In this document: one piece after another, positions 2,576-34,574 of the stretch | Position numbering within the stretch: position 1 is the first letter of the stretch | Layout of the letters: every line of letters starts with the position of its first letter | DNA from: Squatina squatina | Taxonomy: Eukaryota | DNA: 34,791 nt | Assembly: GCA_031763465.1 (NCBI GenBank) | Contig: JARFOE010000038.1 | Span: 1,366,450-1,401,240 of the forward strand | Reading direction: 5' to 3' | The notes under the pieces: model-generated | Told to the model about the DNA's origin: nothing | Databases searched by the model: none | The model's input: only the letters and a program-made list of their open reading frames with translations | Program-made: the position numbers and the translations under genes

Positions 2576-4023
2576 AATTGCGCTAATACAATCATTAATG
2601 TACCACTAGTAGTATAATACTTGACTTACACAATACATAGGCTGACTCAAAATAAATATAGAGTGTGTTAAATTCTTCAGAATTCTTTGCAGTAGCTTTT
2701 GACTGAGTTTCTGAATGGATGTTATGTGGGTGATTGACTTTGCATGGAACCCCTTTTAACCTGTTTCCCCCGTAATTGAGTTATATGAAGCAGAACACTG
2801 AACACCATGATATGATGCATAAATTATGTTGGATATCCTTCCTTTGATGTAAAACAGGCCTTCTATAAGCCCATTCTCTGTTGACATCTGCCTGCTATTG
2901 AAATCACATTTTTCAGATCTCACACAATAGTCAATGCTTTTAAGTTTTCTCGATGTTATGCCTTTGCCTGCAAGATCGAACATGCTTTAACAATTGCCAA
3001 CAACTGAAATGATCCGTAATGCGTGAGCAAGCTAATTACTTAATATCAGGCATGGTGGCATTTACGATGGGCAACTGGATGCTGCTCTCTGTGCTCCATT
3101 CACTTTCAATATCTCAAGCTTCTCTTCTGCTTAGAGGCCAAGGTAGAAAGCAGTACAATCCCCCGAGCCCTTTTGCTAGACCACTCTGGACATCATTGGA
3201 CATGAGAGCATCAAGAAAGTAGGGAAAATGAGGCTGGAGTTCATGGTTGGTTACAATGTTCAGAAAACTATAGANNNNNNNNNNNNNNNNNNNNNNNNNN
3301 NNNNNNNNNNNNNNNNNNNNNNNNNNNNNNNNNNNNNNNNNNNNNNNNNNNNNNNNNNNNNNNNNNNNNNNNNNCTGGACCTCTGTGATAACAACCCTTT
3401 ATGCAAGTCTTGAGGGAAGGACAACAGAATTGCTGGTTGTTGGTGACCCTCAGAACTACTCTGAGGCCAGAAGCAGTCCTGCTCCTCCTGGCTCCAAATC
3501 ATTTTTTAACTGTCTTGGTGGCAGATGCTTCCAGGCCTCATCCATGAGAGAAAAACCAGAATGGAGCCAGTGCCTGTTCTGCCTAATAAAGCACAATTAG
3601 GCACAGGGGTCCTAAAATTGGCATTAGGCCCCTGATTAACATATGCAAGGACCCTCACGCTTGTTTTAGGCGACTGCTGGGGATGGCTGAAAAATCACCT
3701 GGCCCAATATGGGTTAGACGTATTTCAGGCGTCCTTTGGGCGGGAGACATTGTCCTGCAAAATTGGTACTTTTTGTCTCCATTTTCTACCGCACAACAGG
3801 TACAACAAGGACCAAGTTCTACCTCAGAAAATCCTGGAAATATATCAAGTGTGTCACCATCTGAAAGAGAAAAGAAAAGTTAATTTAGGTACAGACCATT
3901 CGTCAGAAAGTGTAACCTATCTTTTTTTCCCCGGACGCTGGCACACCTGATGTGTATTTCCAAGACTTCCTGTTTTTATTTTACATTTTTAGCATTCAGT
4001 TTTTCTTTATATTTTAACATTAC

Positions 4024-4736: not shown

Positions 4737-4915
4737 CTGAACTAAAAAGTTCTGCAGATGGAAGAAGAGCAATAAGACCTGTTGATAAGAGAGTGGATAC
4801 AGCACATCATCCTGATCTTGTAGCGGACGATTCTTGGTGTTATGGATGGCAACGGTAAGCAGTGGAGATATGAAGTTGTGCCTCAGGACTGTCTTCAAAA
4901 ACTGGAGAATACATA
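4737..4915 (-). CDS. MEI1: MEI1 exon (179 nt)
   Basis: tttttccccag|CILQFLKTVLRHNFISPLL...DDVLYPLSYQQVLLLFFHLQNFLVQ|gtaaag resembles human AILCFLRTALRQSFSSAL...[25 protein letters not shown]. Confidence 0.9.
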
Positions 4916-5039
4916 CTGGGGAAAAAGTCAATGATAGAGCTGAAAGGGTCACAATATACTTTTAATAAATCACCGTCATTTTTAAATTTCAGGAGAAATC
5001 TCTGATCTTTTATCAGGTCAGTAATGCCAGTACCTGAAT

Positions 5040-5598
5040 CATAGAATGATTTGGCGAACCATGCCTGTATTGGTTCTTTGAAAGAGCTATCCAATTAGTC
5101 CCACTCCCCAGCTCTTTCCCCATAGCCCAGCAAATTTTGTTCCTTTTCAATTATTTATCCAATTCATTTTTGTAAGTAATCACCACCCTTTCAGGCAGCA
5201 CATTTCAGATCATAACAACTTGCTGCGTAAATCATTTTTCCTCATGTCACCTCTGGTTCTTTTGCCAATTATCTTAAATCTGTGCCCTCTGGTTACTGAC
5301 CTTTCTGCCAGTGGAAACAGTTTCTCCTTATTTACTTTATCAAAACCCTTCAAGATTTTGAACATTTCTATCAAATTTCCTCTGACCCTTCTCTGCTCTA
5401 AGGAGAACAATCTCAGTTATTCTAGACTCTCCATGCAACTGAAGTCTCTCATCCCTGGTACCATTCTTGTAAATCTCCTCTGCACCCTCTCTAAGGCCTT
5501 GACATCCTTCCTAAAGTGTGATGCCCACAATTGGCAACAATACTCCAGCTGGGGCTTAACCAGTGTTTTATAAAAGTTTAGCATAACTTCTTTGCTTT
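5040..5598 (-). mobile_element. CR1-clade LINE 3' fragment
   Basis: FSLEQRRVRGNLIEMFKILKGFDKV...TRGHRFKI is the CR1 ORF2 C-terminal motif. Confidence 0.88.
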
Positions 5599-6484: not shown

Positions 6485-7062
6485 CTGGAAAAGGACAAAC
6501 AGTCCTGTTCCTGCTGGTAACATATTCATGTTTTTTTTTTGCAATGGTAGGATTGCGATTCGACTTCGCAAAGGTCTCAGGCTCCACACCCGTCGATTTT
6601 CATTACAACAATCAAATGCTCCTTCATTTCGGTCCATCCTGTTACCCCTATCATCTATTATTTCTTAAAAAATATAGAAAAAGTAAATGGTTAATAAAAT
6701 ACTTTCCTGTAAGGTTACTTATCTAAAAGGACATAAACAAGATGGCAACATAGTTGGGTGAAAGGCTTTAGAAACTTGCTCCACAGAACTGCGGAGACCA
6801 GAACCTGCAACTACACTGTTACCAGCAACTTAACAGAGGATTGCCATTCTAAATGTTTAGTCGGAAGTTTCAGCATTAAATGTTGACATAAACATGATTA
6901 AACATTTGCACAACAGGAAGTGCAGCCATGCACAAGATTTTTAAAATAAAGATACAATATTTAAATACATTTTATTAGTTATTCACTCCAGCAATACATT
7001 CTAAAATAAAGTCTATACTTTTTGGGAAACTTTTCTATTGCTTTAATGAGTGTATTACTAAC

Positions 7063-7232
7063 CTCGGACTTACAGTTGGTCTGGTTTTGGACTAAAGAGC
7101 TTACTAATAACCAGACAGAGCAGACCAGGACATCAGGGAGAGATTCAAGGGTCGATTGCTCTGACCAGCTCAGCTCTAAAATCTTCTCCAGTAACTCCAT
7201 CAGAGAGGAATTTGACAGTAACATAGACACAA
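7063..7232 (-). CDS. MEI1: MEI1 exon (170 nt)
   Basis: tatgcag|VVSMLLSNSSLMELLEKILELSW...VLVCSVWLLVSSL...KSE|gttagt resembles human [21 protein letters not shown]...LLCSAWLLTASF. Confidence 0.9.
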
Positions 7233-8639
7233 CTGCATAATTAACAAGTACATTTTAAATGCTTANNNNNNNNNNTGCTTATGTAATATATATATGCAAA
7301 TGTATTTCATTTTTTGCAACTCAAAATAAATATTGAAATGCACTTGATAACCTAATTTATTCTAGAAAAATGGCCAAAAACTCTTAGGCATGGGTTTTCC
7401 TCTGCTATCCTGACCTAAATCAGGCAGGATAATGGTGGAAATTGGGCAGCAAGGCCTATCAATGTATTCCTGCCCTGACTTATATTTTCCCACACCCATC
7501 CCAGCTGGTAAGGCCGCTGTCCACCCCTTTCGTTTGCCACATGTAAATGACAGTGACGAGGCAGGCACCAGCAAACCACCCAATCTGCGTTCTTGCCGTC
7601 ACTAATACCAATAACCACAGGAGTCACCAGAACACTTAGCAGTAACACTTAACCTTGCAGTAGCAGGCCCCCTACTTCATTGGTTGGAGGGAGAGGGTCT
7701 AGTAATGACCTCCTCTCCCTCCTTAATGACCCCAATCACGATCCACTCAGTGACCTTCAGTGCAAAATGTGATTTTCCCTTTGGAGCGCTTCTTCCCCTC
7801 TGATTTTGGCTCATGCCTCTTCTGGTGCTGCAGCATTACTGCCTTTCTCTCGACAGCAATGGTGACTTGGTATCTTGGTGACTGGGAGCTCATCTTGCAT
7901 ACCTCATCCAAGGTAGGGAACTGGGGTGGTAGATGGAAGTCCTGTCCCAACCCTCCTGCAGTGGGATTAGAACAATCCAACCCATAATCTTTAACATATT
8001 CCAATGCATTTAATTTGTTTTTCCTCTCCTTAGGACACATGTCATATTCTGATTGAGAGGATAAGCAGGTATGCAACATGCTCCCAGACCTCTGATATAC
8101 TCTTCTTGACCCAGTTGTTAGGTGTATAAAAGAAGCTGTGTTCCTCATACGCTCATTTCCTGTGCAGTGGCTGAACTACAACATGACATCACTCAGTGGG
8201 ATGTATGAAATCAGCAACCAGTGAATTTGTTGCAAGAAGGTTCTCATCACTAGCCTATTCTGTTTTGTTCCACTTTTCTTGTATTTTTACCTTCAATAAA
8301 CTTAACATGGAGAGGAAAATATAGGTCATTGCTGGGAAAGAATGCCAAAAGCTTTTCTCTACATTTAACCCATTTATGCTAACATTGGTTGAAGAGCAGT
8401 GGGAGGATATCCTGAACTGACATAAATCACCTTGTTTGCACCAAACTCGTCAAAAAGATTCCAAAAGGGTAATTTTATTGAATCTTTAAACAGTGCCATT
8501 TAAGGGTAAATACTCTGATTGAATTCTCCTGGCATGGAGCCCCACACGTCAGGAGAACCTATTAGAAAATTCCACACTGCAGCCTGTATCTTTCTGTCCA
8601 TCTCTATCTTCCCCTGCGGTGTTCTTGTTTTCTGTCTCT

Positions 8640-27842: not shown

Positions 27843-28537
27843 CTACAAGATGTCTAGTGTATTGTGATTAATGTTTGTGCCTGTTAAGTCCGGGTTGTCA
27901 GAACCCAAGCCAAGGTCACTGGCGGCACCATGTAAGCCTGCCATTCCAGGGTTAGCAAGTTGAGAAAGCATTGCACTCTGGTCCGGAGCAGCAAAGTGTC
28001 CTTGATCCATGGGGTTTGCCTGGGCAGCTACCATTCCCGGATGTGGGGAGTTAGTCTGTGGCGAGACGTGGGGTGGAGACGGTTGAGGCTGCATCCTGGG
28101 CGACGGGCTGGAATGAGGTGGCTGGGACTGCGGGCGTGGTGAAGGCACGGGCTGTGGGGACCGTACCTGGTTGCTGAGAGAGGATGGGTGCTGGCCCTGG
28201 AGGTGAGGTGACTGGGCCTGGCCAGGGAGCATGTGCTGCTGTGGACTCATGGAGTTGGACTGGGCTGGCGAACCCATCTGCTGTTGCTGCTGCTGGAGAA
28301 TTCGCTGTTGGAGGGCTTGATGGAGACTGGAACTGCTCTCTGCTCCCATTCCTGCTTGTTGAATCTGGCTCATCTGCCCCATCGGCTGTCCCACTTGTCC
28401 CATGGTTCCCTGCTGCATGGGCATATGATGCTGTATCCTCTGTTGTTGCTGCTGCTGTTGCATGGGATAACCAGAACTTTGAGGCTGTTGAAACTGGTTA
28501 GCCATTCCAGCGCTCATGCCAGGGTTTGATTGCTGCT
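27843..28537 (-). CDS. EP300: EP300 terminal exon, 3' part with stop codon
   Basis: LSNQVRSPQPVPSPRPQSQPPHSSPSPRMQPQPSP...NPMDQGHFAAPDQSAMLSQLA...HNTLDIL* resembles the p300 C-terminus STLDIH*. TAG is at 27845-27843. Confidence 0.95.
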
Positions 28538-29026
28538 NNNNNNNNNNNNNNNNNNNNNNNNNNNNNNNNNNNNNNNNNNNNNNNNNNNNNNNNNNNNNNN
28601 NNNNNNNNNNNNNNNNNNNNNNNNNNNNNNNNNNNNNCATTATCCTTCCAGATTATGAGAGGAGCTCGTGAAACTAATCCAGGTAAATTGTTCGTTATGT
28701 GGAAGGGTTCAAATAGCAGGGACAGAAATTAAAAATTCCGAATTTCAGAATAAGAACAGAAGGTAGGCAAAACATTTTCATCCAAATTTAATGGAATTAT
28801 GGAATAGGTTACCAGTGAAGTCACTGGTAACCTGAATTGAATAGTCTAAATAGGTTCAAGCAGCAGAGTTAACTGGGGCATTTTATTCCTGTTGACTTCT
28901 CAGATGCTACTAAGCAGAAGTTTGACGTTGCCACATTGTGACTGGCTGACAAAACTACTTCAAAAGAGAGTGGTTGACTGAGTAGTTAAATACAGATATA
29001 TACCAGGTTATTTAGGAAAGGTTTAC

Positions 29027-29201
29027 CTGCTGATCCAAATCCTCCAAGTGCTGAGCCAATAGCAGCACCCAGAGAGTTACTGCTTCCAAAGCCAAGTGAT
29101 GTGTTGCCCGGCTGGCCGGGCCCATGAGAGAACAAAGAGCTGCTCTGAGAACTATTTGACAGAGAGCTACTGCCGTAAAATGAGTTTGACTGCAAGTTGC
29201 T
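29027..29201 (-). CDS. PUM2: PUM2 (Pumilio 2) exon 3' part joined in frame to EP300 at a poly-Gln tract; probably chimeric
   Basis: [58 protein letters not shown]|gtaaac is nearly identical to the recalled Ser-rich region of human PUM2. Intron-like DNA follows down to the gap at 28637. Confidence 0.88.
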
Positions 29202-29768
29202 TTGTTGTTGCTGCTGCTGCTGTTGCTGCTGAGGGATGTTGGGCCGTTGAACTCCAGGCTGCATGGGGCTCATGTTCTGCATGCCTGGGTTGCCATGCAT
29301 GCCCTGCTGTCCCTGCATTACTGGCTGTGCCTGCATTACTGGCTGTCCCTGCATACCTGGCTGTCCCTGCATACCTGGCTGTCCTTGACCTCCTTGATAC
29401 CTGGCTGCCCTTTGCTTGATGAAAGCAGCCATAAGCTGGGGGTTGGAACGGAGGATAGCAAGCACTTGCTGTTGCTGCATAGGGGAGCTCGGAGACCTGA
29501 GAGTCCGCAATAAGTCCTGCAGGGCCCCTTGGGGAATAGCACCTCGGCTGGGCTGAGGCACCCCTGATGTAACTTGGCACATGGGCGGTGGTGGTTGGGG
29601 TTGCATGTTCATTTGCAGGGCTTGCTGGGCCATCTGCATGACTGGTCTTTGCATTCCTTGTGGATGCTGCTGAGTCTGGGCCATTCCAGCTTGTCCCCAC
29701 TGTGCCTGCTGCATGCTGGCTGATACCATTCCCTGATCCGTGTGACTGGGGGCTCTCTGCGACTGTTG
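29202..29768 (-). CDS. EP300: EP300 terminal exon, middle part (NCBD/IBiD coactivator-binding domain, poly-Gln)
   Basis: [44 protein letters not shown] is the p300/CBP NCBD. Confidence 0.94.
29297..29384 (-). repeat. 18-nt coding tandem repeat, about 5 units ([12 protein letters not shown])
   Basis: Repeated ctgcatacctggctgtcc / ctgcattactggctgt units. Confidence 0.85.
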
Positions 29769-30006
29769 NNNNNNNNNNNNNNNNNNNNNNNNNNNNNNNN
29801 NNNNNNNNNNNNNNNNNNNNNNNNNNNNNNNNNNNNNNNNNNNNNNNNNNNNNNNNNNNNNNNNNNNNNNNNNNNNNNNNNNNNNNNNNNNNNNNNNNNN
29901 NNNNNNNNNNNNNNNNNNNNNNNNNNNNNNNNNNNNNNNNNNNNNNNNNNNNNNNNNNNNNNNNNNNNNNNNNNNNNNNNNNNNNNNNNNNNNNNNNNNN
30001 NNNNNN

Positions 30007-30632
30007 CTTCTTGCCATGTTGCTGTAGGAAGGCATGTTGGTTGGTGGTGGTGGCTGCGGCTGGGGCTGTGGCTGTGGTTGAGCTGGAGGTTGGGGCTGAG
30101 GAGTCTGCGGGGTGCTCGGCTGCTGTCCTGTTGGTGTAGTGGGTGCAGTGCCACTTGGAGAAGGCAGGCTTTGCTGTCCAACACCACCTCGCTGCATTGT
30201 GGCCATCCTCCTGCGTAGCATCTGGGCTTGTTGTAGACGGTGCTGTAGCTGTTGTTGCCGAAGCTTGTGCTTGATGTTGAGACAGAACGGCACAGGGCAC
30301 TTTGTCTCTTGGCAGTGCTTGGCATGGTAGCAACAGAGCGCAATAAGCTGCTTGCAGATTGGGCAGCCACCATTGGTCTTGCGTTTGCACCCTTTGGTGT
30401 GCTGGACCACCCTCTTCATCTTCTGGCAGGAAGGCAGAGAACAGTTGGCATTGCGGCACTGGCAGGCATGGACCAGTGACTGAATGCAGCGCTGGATGCT
30501 GAGGCGCCTTGAATCTCCGGTGCTGGCTTCTGACCCTTGAGAGTTGCTCTCATCATCCAGACCAAGGCCAAGCTTCTCCATCTTGTGCTCATGTCCCTTA
30601 CTGTTAAAGCAGTTGACACAGAGGTCATAATC
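30007..30632 (-). CDS. EP300: EP300 terminal exon, 5' part (end of ZZ, TAZ2 zinc finger, Pro/Gln-rich linker)
   Basis: ttttctag|DYDLCVNCFNSKGHEHKMEKLGLGLDD...SRRLSIQRCIQSLVHACQCRNANCSLPSCQKMKRVVQHTKGCKRKTNGGCPICKQLIALCCYHAKHC. Confidence 0.96.
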
Positions 30633-32140: not shown

Positions 32141-32350
32141 NTCTCTCTCTACCTATCTCCCTATCTCTGTCTCTATCTCTCTGTCCGTCTCTTTATCTCT
32201 ATCTATCTCTATCTCTGTCTCTCTCTACCTACCTCTCTATTTCTCACTACCTCTCTCTCTCTCACTCTCTATCTTTCTCTATCTATCTGTCTCTCTACCT
32301 ATCTCTATCGCTCCCTCTATCGCGCTCTCTATCTCTCTTTATTTCTCTAA
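32141..32350. repeat. compound (CT)n/(CTAT)n microsatellite
   Basis: Directly visible. It abuts a large gap. Confidence 0.95.
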
Positions 32351-33057
32351 TCTAAAATAAAAACAAATCTAAACAGCAATCTGTAGAGACAGATTGGCCA
32401 TAGGCAGCATCGCAGCCAAGCCCATTCCTGCAAACACTTACAGCTGTGCATCCCTATTGTGTATCTCGGGTTATTGGCGAGTGATCAAAAGTTGGAGCCG
32501 TGTCTGAATTTATCTTCCCATTCCTAAGCCGAGGATACGAAACCTTGGGGGGCCCTTGACATCAGCTAATTCATCTCACACTGGAGTTTATCTGCAAGTC
32601 TCAGTACCATAACCAGTGGTGCATTTATCCACTAAATCCTGTTTGAATAAAACTTCATTTGTACTTTGAATGTTTTGTCACAAGATAAATCCAAAGATAT
32701 TACAAATTAATATTTGGAGGAGCGAGAAAAATTCTTATGCTGCACAGTTAATGCAGCACAGACCGGAGCTTCAGTCTGGTGAGACACATATCTGCCCTAT
32801 CATTTCTCTGTTGAATTGGACTGTGTTGCCATGGATAAATATTTAGTAAATATAAGGGGTGGGGGGGAGAAAGGGTAGGAGAGGAAATCAGAACGAGTCA
32901 CTGGTCATTGGATGCTTTGCTCAATGGCTGAATTCAGAGCAGCATCTGCAGAAGCCAAACAGCAGCAGGTTTATCTGCATTTGACACAGGGAGACATGCA
33001 TAAAAGAGAGCAAAGTCAGTCATTACCCAGGACAGACTAAAGAGATAAAAACTGTAC

Positions 33058-33219
33058 CTCCTTGTGCTTTTCCATGGTGGCATAAAGTTTCTGGGAGAGG
33101 TCGTTGGACACATTGGGCCTCCCCGGTTTCTTCTTGTTACCTCGGCTCAGGCTGCTCTTATTCTTGCTCGTTTTCTTGTTGTTCTTTTTCTTTGCATTTT
33201 TGCTGTCTCCCTTCTTCCC
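33058..33219 (-). CDS. EP300: EP300 exon encoding the Lys-rich HAT autoinhibitory loop (162 nt)
   Basis: ttttcag|GKKGDSKNAKKKNNKKTSKNKSSLSRGNKKKPGRPNVSNDLSQKLYATMEKHKE|gtacag. KTSKNKSSLSRG is p300-type rather than CBP-type. Confidence 0.96.
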
Positions 33220-34421
33220 CTGAAAACATCAGCATGTCAATTCAGCAGTTACAGCAATGTTTAAAAGCATGTATTTTCATGCCCCTGAACCAGAGAGTTG
33301 CAAGGGGAGAATTCAGGAGGGGAGCTCAACTTTCAGAACCACTGGTAAATGGGTCGATTTAGCCAGCTTGGGTCTTGCACATCGTAATCCCGCTTAACTC
33401 AGGAAATCCCGATTGAAACAGTACAGTCGAGAGGTATGCCAAGAACTGCTAGCAGCTGTTACCACCCCTCTCTCTGGGGCTGGATTTAAAGAATGGCTGT
33501 GGGGGTGGGCAGGAGAATGCAGCAAGTGTTTGTGTTTTTAAAGGGAGAGGGGTATTTCAATTATTTTTGTTGCACCTTTATGTATTAACACCTTCACTTT
33601 GGAAAACATTAAAAAAAAAATCACCAATTTAATATTGTATTTATCTGCTAGCCTAATTTCTAACTGCAGAATGAGTAGTTTGATGTTGGTAACCACAGTG
33701 CCTTGCAGTAACATTGACATGCAAGATACATTGCTTTGAAATATATTTTACTTCTGCTTCATTTTTTTCCTATGTTTAAGGGACTGATAGAAAAAAAACT
33801 TACATTTATATAGCGCCTTTCACAACCGCCGGGCGTCTCATAGCACTTTGCAGCCAACACTCCCAACAGCTTTTGGAGTGTAGTCNNNNNNNNNNNNNNN
33901 NNNNNNNNNNNNNNNNNNNNNNNNNNNNNNNNNNNNNNNNNNNNNNNNNNNNNNNNNNNNNNNNNNNNNNNNNNNNNNNNNNNNNTGCCTCAATGGCCTT
34001 CTATGGTAATTTAACCCACAAACTTAGTCACCCCTTTGGGTGAAAAAGTTCCAACTGATTTTCCCCATCACTCCAACTTGCTCATTTTTAAACCTGTGCT
34101 CCCCTTTGCTATTATGATCAATTTGCCTGCATCAATCCTGTCAATTCCTTTGAAAATCTCGAAAAATTCAATTAGTCATAAACTTCCAAGTTTCCCTCCC
34201 CCCCTCTCCCCGCCAAAGTAAACAAGCTCAAATTCTTTAACCTTTCCTCATTAACTTAAATTCTTAATATCTGGACTTATACTCTCTCCCACTACGCTAG
34301 ATGGGGGCTGACCAACACCCTAGCAAGTCACTTATGCAGACTGCAACCACCATACAAAGTATCTGCTGTGCAAAGATAATGACACAATGAATATTGCAAC
34401 TAGCAAACTATTGGGGCTCAC

Positions 34422-34574
34422 CTCTGATTGGGCGGAGGACAGTCTGAACCGTACTCCTGCACATGCATGCCGAAGAAACACACGTCCACACCATCAATCT
34501 CTTCAAAGGCAAACAAAGCTTTTGNNNNNNNNNNATAAGAAAACGACTCTGCCATCTCTCCATTATCAACAAAC
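34422..34574 (-). CDS. EP300: EP300 HAT-domain exon (contains a 10-N gap)
   Basis: tttatag|[47 protein letters not shown]|gtgagc. PPPNQR is p300-type. Confidence 0.95.

Follow-up and report, generated by a model that had tools for sequence, protein, structure and literature searches.

An in-frame EP300–PUM2 join in the Squatina squatina assembly is very probably a misjoin at a shared CAG/CAA repeat

Introduction

EP300 fusion genes of human tumours are somatic, have intronic breakpoints, and are expressed as spliced transcripts. In the vertebrate EP300 last exon, as represented by the p300 proteins of coelacanth (P0124), lizard (P0127), and bird (P0128), the TAZ2 domain, the NCBD, and the C-terminal Gln-rich region follow one another in order. 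In vertebrate PUM2, as represented by the Heterodontus francisci proteins P0004 and P0005, a Ser-rich exon lies upstream of the PUF domain. Joins between two such genes can also be made by software. De Bruijn graphs, according to PMC6868369, resolve only repeats shorter than k, with k usually 21–96; a reference-guided scaffolder, according to PMC9753292, places a contig by its primary alignment, derives gap sizes from the reference, and inserts 100 N where the derived gap is too small.

Here, we analyze a stretch of 34,791 nt of the Squatina squatina assembly GCA_031763465.1 (contig JARFOE010000038.1, positions 1,366,450–1,401,240; hereafter "the window"), in which an initial annotation had described the EP300 terminal exon running in frame into a PUM2 exon at a shared poly-Gln tract. 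We conclude that the join is very probably a misjoin at a CAG/CAA repeat common to the two genes and probably does not represent a real fusion gene.

Materials and methods

The length missing from p300 was estimated from coelacanth, lizard, and bird p300 together with the lengths of relatives' contigs, using proteins of up to 2,000 residues, the limit of protein retrieval. For comparison with related organisms, 8 of the 24 listed runs, representing 6 organisms and 8 studies and all consisting of contigs, were compared with the region. All compared runs appear to be from other species (no listed run shares more than 0.22, i.e. 22%, of sampled words), and an event private to this individual or species lies beyond their reach. 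The comparison skipped 42 repeat letters, and one joint and ten loose ends were dropped there over both comparisons (one joint and four loose ends in the first, six loose ends in the second).

Results

The region of the join comprises nine elements.

30007..30632, minus strand: EP300 last coding exon, 5′ part (end of ZZ, TAZ2, Pro/Gln linker); PF02135 and PF00569; 87% identity to coelacanth p300 P0124
29769..30006, no strand: 238-N sized gap within the EP300 last exon; length fits the expectation from relatives
29232..29768, minus strand: EP300 last exon, NCBD and Gln/Gly/Pro-rich stretch; PF09030; one match in the assembly
29202..29231, minus strand: junction, ten CAG/CAA Gln codons; Gln run at the equivalent point in p300 and in shark PUM2
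29027..29201, minus strand: PUM2 coding exon, 3′ half (about aa 634–691 of shark PUM2 P0005), undecayed; covered by relatives' contigs in 8/8 runs
28800..29026, minus strand: PUM2 intron, starting with GT; relatives' contigs, runs X1, X2, X12, X18
28638..28799, no strand: dispersed repeat at the contig end; 10 matches at 69–84% elsewhere in the assembly; separate records in relatives
28538..28637: 100-N gap of default size; conceals the end of the foreign piece
27843..28537, minus strand: EP300 C-terminal 230 codons and stop, opening in the second Gln run; 73% identity to coelacanth P0124

Positions 28638–29768, read on the minus strand, form a single contig of 1,131 bases, which leads from the EP300 last exon through the ten CAG/CAA codons into the 3′ half of a PUM2 exon, a GT donor, and PUM2 intron. 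The upstream part of the contig encodes the p300/CBP NCBD (PF09030, E 2e-36). Re-reading of the coordinates reproduced the layout given by the initial annotation: ten Gln codons at 29231–29202, passage of the frame without a gap into the peptide ending GGFGSA, a GT donor at 29026–29025, and 100 N at 28637–28538, beyond which p300 restarts with Gln codons at 28535. The foreign segment past the Gln run is 564 bases long (28638–29201); it begins mid-exon, without an acceptor, and contributes 58 codons in frame before the GT at 29026. The fused frame extends over 548 codons from stop to stop (28986–30632) and 531 from the first Met, the length previously reported for the ORF, though 80 of these codons fall within the 238-N gap.

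The EP300 parts (TAZ2, NCBD, C-terminal Gln-rich region) are in their usual order and are 63–87% identical to coelacanth P0124. An AG acceptor lies just upstream of the exon start at 30632, and the C-terminal frame is intact and open to the stop codon at 27845–27843. Relatives' contigs pass into the CAG run at the 28537-side end of the C-terminal piece. Pfam returned no family for this piece or for eight other open frames of the window (nine of 12 queries blank). Seven upstream EP300 exons are present, in order and with normal splice ends or N, at 33046–33213 and 34421–34573 of the window and in C38 up to position 1424882; most other EP300 exons are located in gaps. Elsewhere in the window, a simple CT-rich repeat (32142–32360) adjoins a 957-N gap, and four open frames on the minus strand (3658–3879, 4843–5094, 6982–7254, and 7750–8175) resemble exons of a gene downstream of EP300, which may be MEI1. 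None of the four has a Pfam match; 6982–7254 has weak ARM-repeat-like neighbours, below recognition level.

The peptide downstream of the Gln run matched 2,368 proteins, of which the best among the 120 listed is Heterodontus francisci PUM2 (100% identity over 97% of the 59 residues, E 7e-21), in agreement with its earlier assignment to PUM2; a 68-residue comparison with shark PUM2 P0005 gives 97% identity. The peptide is nearer to PUM2 (97–100%, shark) than to PUM1: the PUM1-like copy on C203 is 69% identical to P0005 and 78% identical in DNA. All 12 chondrichthyan PUM2 proteins examined have a Gln run directly ahead of the peptide, as the initial annotation had stated for PUM2.

Because the DNA after the GT is orthologous intron to ~28800, the foreign piece is, as judged from its sequence, genomic PUM2 DNA beginning mid-exon and not a retrocopy. 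The earlier description of this DNA as intron-like thus holds as far as ~28800, where the match to the relatives' PUM2 intron ends; the last ~160 bases (28800–28638) are a dispersed repeat, whose membership in the PUM2 intron is only putative. In four of the relatives' runs (X6, X10, X17, X19), the donor at 29027 is spliced to the next PUM2 exon, and the spliced partner agrees at 30 of 30 positions with the first bases of the acceptor exon C4:14115334, with the best matches on C203 and C38 having 12 and 11 mismatches. One run additionally splices the donor to the following PUM2 exon (28/30 match). At 29025–29027, run X17 has two spliced forms, one to the next PUM2 exon and one skipping to the following exon. 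Within the intron, at 28868–28896, four runs of three related organisms have 617–662 additional letters compared with the window, a difference that reflects either a species-specific deletion or another assembly error in the same contig.

The assembly contains 1.5 Gb in 1,152,659 contigs, with a median contig of 1.1–1.25 kb and 13–58% N; the best protein matches of the window are from sharks. A search of the assembly with the 564-base piece, as the initial annotation had proposed, gave 12 matches: the piece itself (the sole full match), the PUM1-like paralogue on C203 (78%, the only other match to the exon), and ten at 69–84% to the repeat-like end. PUF repeats were found on C4 and C203. C4 carries PUM2, identifiable by 11 exon matches at 80–100% to P0005; there is no match for aa 547–691, and the exons flanking the missing part are 90–100% identical on both sides. 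The gene at C203:588533–631165 is PUM1-like and has an intact homologous exon of its own. On C4, a 1,687-N gap (C4:14113337–14115023) ends 310 bases ahead of the next PUM2 exon. This gap is the home place of the misplaced PUM2 piece; the absence of the piece there is weak evidence alone, because N makes up 43% of the region and many further exons of PUM2 are likewise missing. A protein search of the assembly for the PUM2 5′ half-exon and the preceding exon found only the PUM1-like copy, and a search for the p300 middle stretch with the coelacanth query gave, apart from CBP on C168, just two matches, both at E 0.7. Comparison of the window piece with the C4 flanks revealed no overlap; the best match spans 19 bases (E 0.67). 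C168:3879267–3882506 is a CREBBP-like last exon with the stretch from NCBD to C-terminus intact; therefore, the p300 and CBP paralogues are both present.

Alignments place 47 (coelacanth P0124), 44 (lizard P0127), and 45 (bird P0128) residues between the two p300 pieces of the window, which agrees with the earlier statement that the p300 stretch between the two Gln runs is absent and sets its length at ~45 codons. Conserved anchors across the junction are 393 codons apart in the window vs a median of 199 (151–214, n=23). Across the 238-N gap, anchors are 255 aa apart in the window vs 248–256 in four p300 proteins; the median is 249 (97–396, n=30) with CBP and fragments included. The 238-N gap is therefore about the right size, and the junction region is ~540 bases too long.

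In the related organisms, the two halves of the contig belong to different records. No record or joint bridges p300 and PUM2 in any of the 8 runs (0/8). The PUM2 exon is covered in 8/8 runs, always in PUM2 records, which extend upstream of the exon by 1,120, 1,126, 760, 1,936, 1,760, 2,426, and 1,605 letters that are not on p300 in seven runs and by 40 letters in the eighth. The p300 NCBD is covered in 3/8 runs (X1, X12, X18), each time by a separate record; these records extend 169, 274, and 151 letters beyond 29237, and the extensions are not on the PUM2 piece, because the depth there is that of the PUM2 record alone. The true continuations of both genes are present as separate records in the relatives; they were not found in the own assembly, so that no second path was seen there, a point against the misjoin. 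Both parts of the contig are ordinary, undecayed pieces of two genes, which lie on different scaffolds here and are separate in related species.

A 248-aa query spanning the fusion, in a search covering proteins of up to 2,000 residues, retrieved 2,046 proteins of 435–2,000 residues; among the 120 listed, none covers more than 70% of the query or has both PF09030 and PF00806. In 249 retrieved proteins, the NCBD motif is present in 47, the PUM2 motif in 187, and both in 0. No EP300–PUM2 fusion appears in the titles or abstract beginnings of the literature searched.

A second abrupt transition is present in PUM2 itself. At C4:14115333–14115598, the next PUM2 exon ends 11 codons early (~aa 760), without a donor, and continues into a high-copy repeat, which we take to resemble an L2/CR1-type LINE. 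The repeat has at least 39 other copies (1,056 candidates, 40 scored), and homology to it begins ~20 bases inside the exon. This exon-to-repeat transition (C4:14115539) is likely a second misjoin. A protein search of the assembly for the lost end of the cut exon found only the next exon. Of the 30 exon pieces that were mapped across EP300, PUM2, and the PUM1-like gene, 2 carry such a join; the ends of the other 28 show none.

The 93 gaps counted comprise 7 of 10 N, 57 of 100 N, and 29 larger, with none of 11–99 N, a pattern that fits the gap rule given in PMC9753292. Towards the end of the contig list, two sampled contigs have lengths of 611 and 636 bases, which hints that shorter contigs were filtered out of the assembly.

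Discussion

The evidence points with high confidence to a misjoin at the CAG/CAA repeat, as the initial annotation had favoured. The junction lies within a 30-base CAG/CAA run common to both source loci, and the foreign piece is absent from its home locus on C4, where there is a gap. The reading of the 531-aa ORF as a false fusion is further supported by the single copy of the piece in the assembly, the eight runs without a bridging record, the listed protein matches with no fused protein among them, and the second join in PUM2.

A low-coverage short-read assembly could produce such a contig in the following way. The two Gln runs would have in common a word no shorter than the assembler overlap. 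The true exits, i.e. the ~45-codon p300 stretch and the PUM2 5′ half-exon, would have been lost or left on contigs too short to keep, so that the common run could be entered in the graph only from p300 and left only towards PUM2, and the false path would be written as one contig. A reference-guided scaffolder would then likely have anchored this contig to EP300 through its p300 half; with 564 foreign bases at its tail, the computed gap would have been negative and hence written as the default 100 N. The link might equally have come from one chimeric library molecule, which would here be indistinguishable from a graph path. The 100-N gap is as compatible with a real insertion as with a chimeric contig, and we therefore set it aside as evidence.

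The principal alternative is a real and recent DNA event, in which CAG/CAA microhomology led either to the copying of a PUM2 exon–intron fragment into the last exon of EP300 or to a translocation between the two loci. Such an event is predicted to yield a p300 that keeps the NCBD and has, in place of its last ~275 residues, a Ser-rich PUM2 peptide that carries a live splice donor. It would account for a contig that is continuous and in frame over the junction; microhomology at the junction is also expected for repair-driven insertions. A collapsed recent duplicate would likewise appear only once in the assembly, and the far end of an insertion could be concealed in the 100-N gap. Against it, the join is absent from the contigs of the six related organisms and from the listed proteins, the PUM2 piece is undecayed, and the 230 C-terminal codons of p300 are intact and open, as in a working gene. 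Moreover, on a literal reading the second, similar join would leave PUM2 doubly broken though its other exons are 90–100% conserved, which is implausible. We consider a real event very unlikely.

A processed PUM2 retrocopy, or lineage-wide capture of the exon by EP300, has a negligible probability: all that speaks for it is that coding sequence of PUM2 lies within another gene, and against this the piece starts mid-exon without an acceptor, the GT donor and orthologous intron are retained, so that introns were not removed as in a processed retrocopy, and relatives lack the piece at EP300 (p300 contigs of X1, X12, and X18), which contradicts lineage-wide capture.

If the fusion were true, it would be a natural case of exons shuffled between conserved genes that are unrelated, with poly-Gln codon runs serving as frame-preserving recombination points between essential genes. 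The preferred explanation, a misjoin at the shared repeat, carries a warning for users of this assembly: contigs may change locus at 20–30 shared bases, within coding exons and in frame, and misplaced or fused exons need read support before they are believed.

Comparison with known systems places the locus as follows. The EP300 part resembles the vertebrate EP300 last exon in having TAZ2, the NCBD, and the C-terminal Gln-rich region in order; it differs in that the 44–47 residues between the Gln runs are replaced by 564 foreign bases and 100 N. The foreign part resembles vertebrate PUM2 in its peptide (97–100% identity to Heterodontus francisci PUM2), its donor position, and its orthologous intron, but the exon is reduced to its 3′ half, which is located on the EP300 scaffold. 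The join shares with the EP300 fusions of human tumours the in-frame connection of p300 to an unrelated gene, but it lies mid-exon at a shared codon repeat. It also resembles repeat-induced misassembly in short-read de Bruijn assemblies as treated in PMC6868369, in that the assembly is fragmented and a short tandem repeat, about as long as a k-mer, is the meeting point of two unique sequences; whereas that account concerns unresolved or collapsed repeats in general, the repeat here is coding and lies on the same strand and in the same frame in two genes, and the product mimics a fusion ORF.
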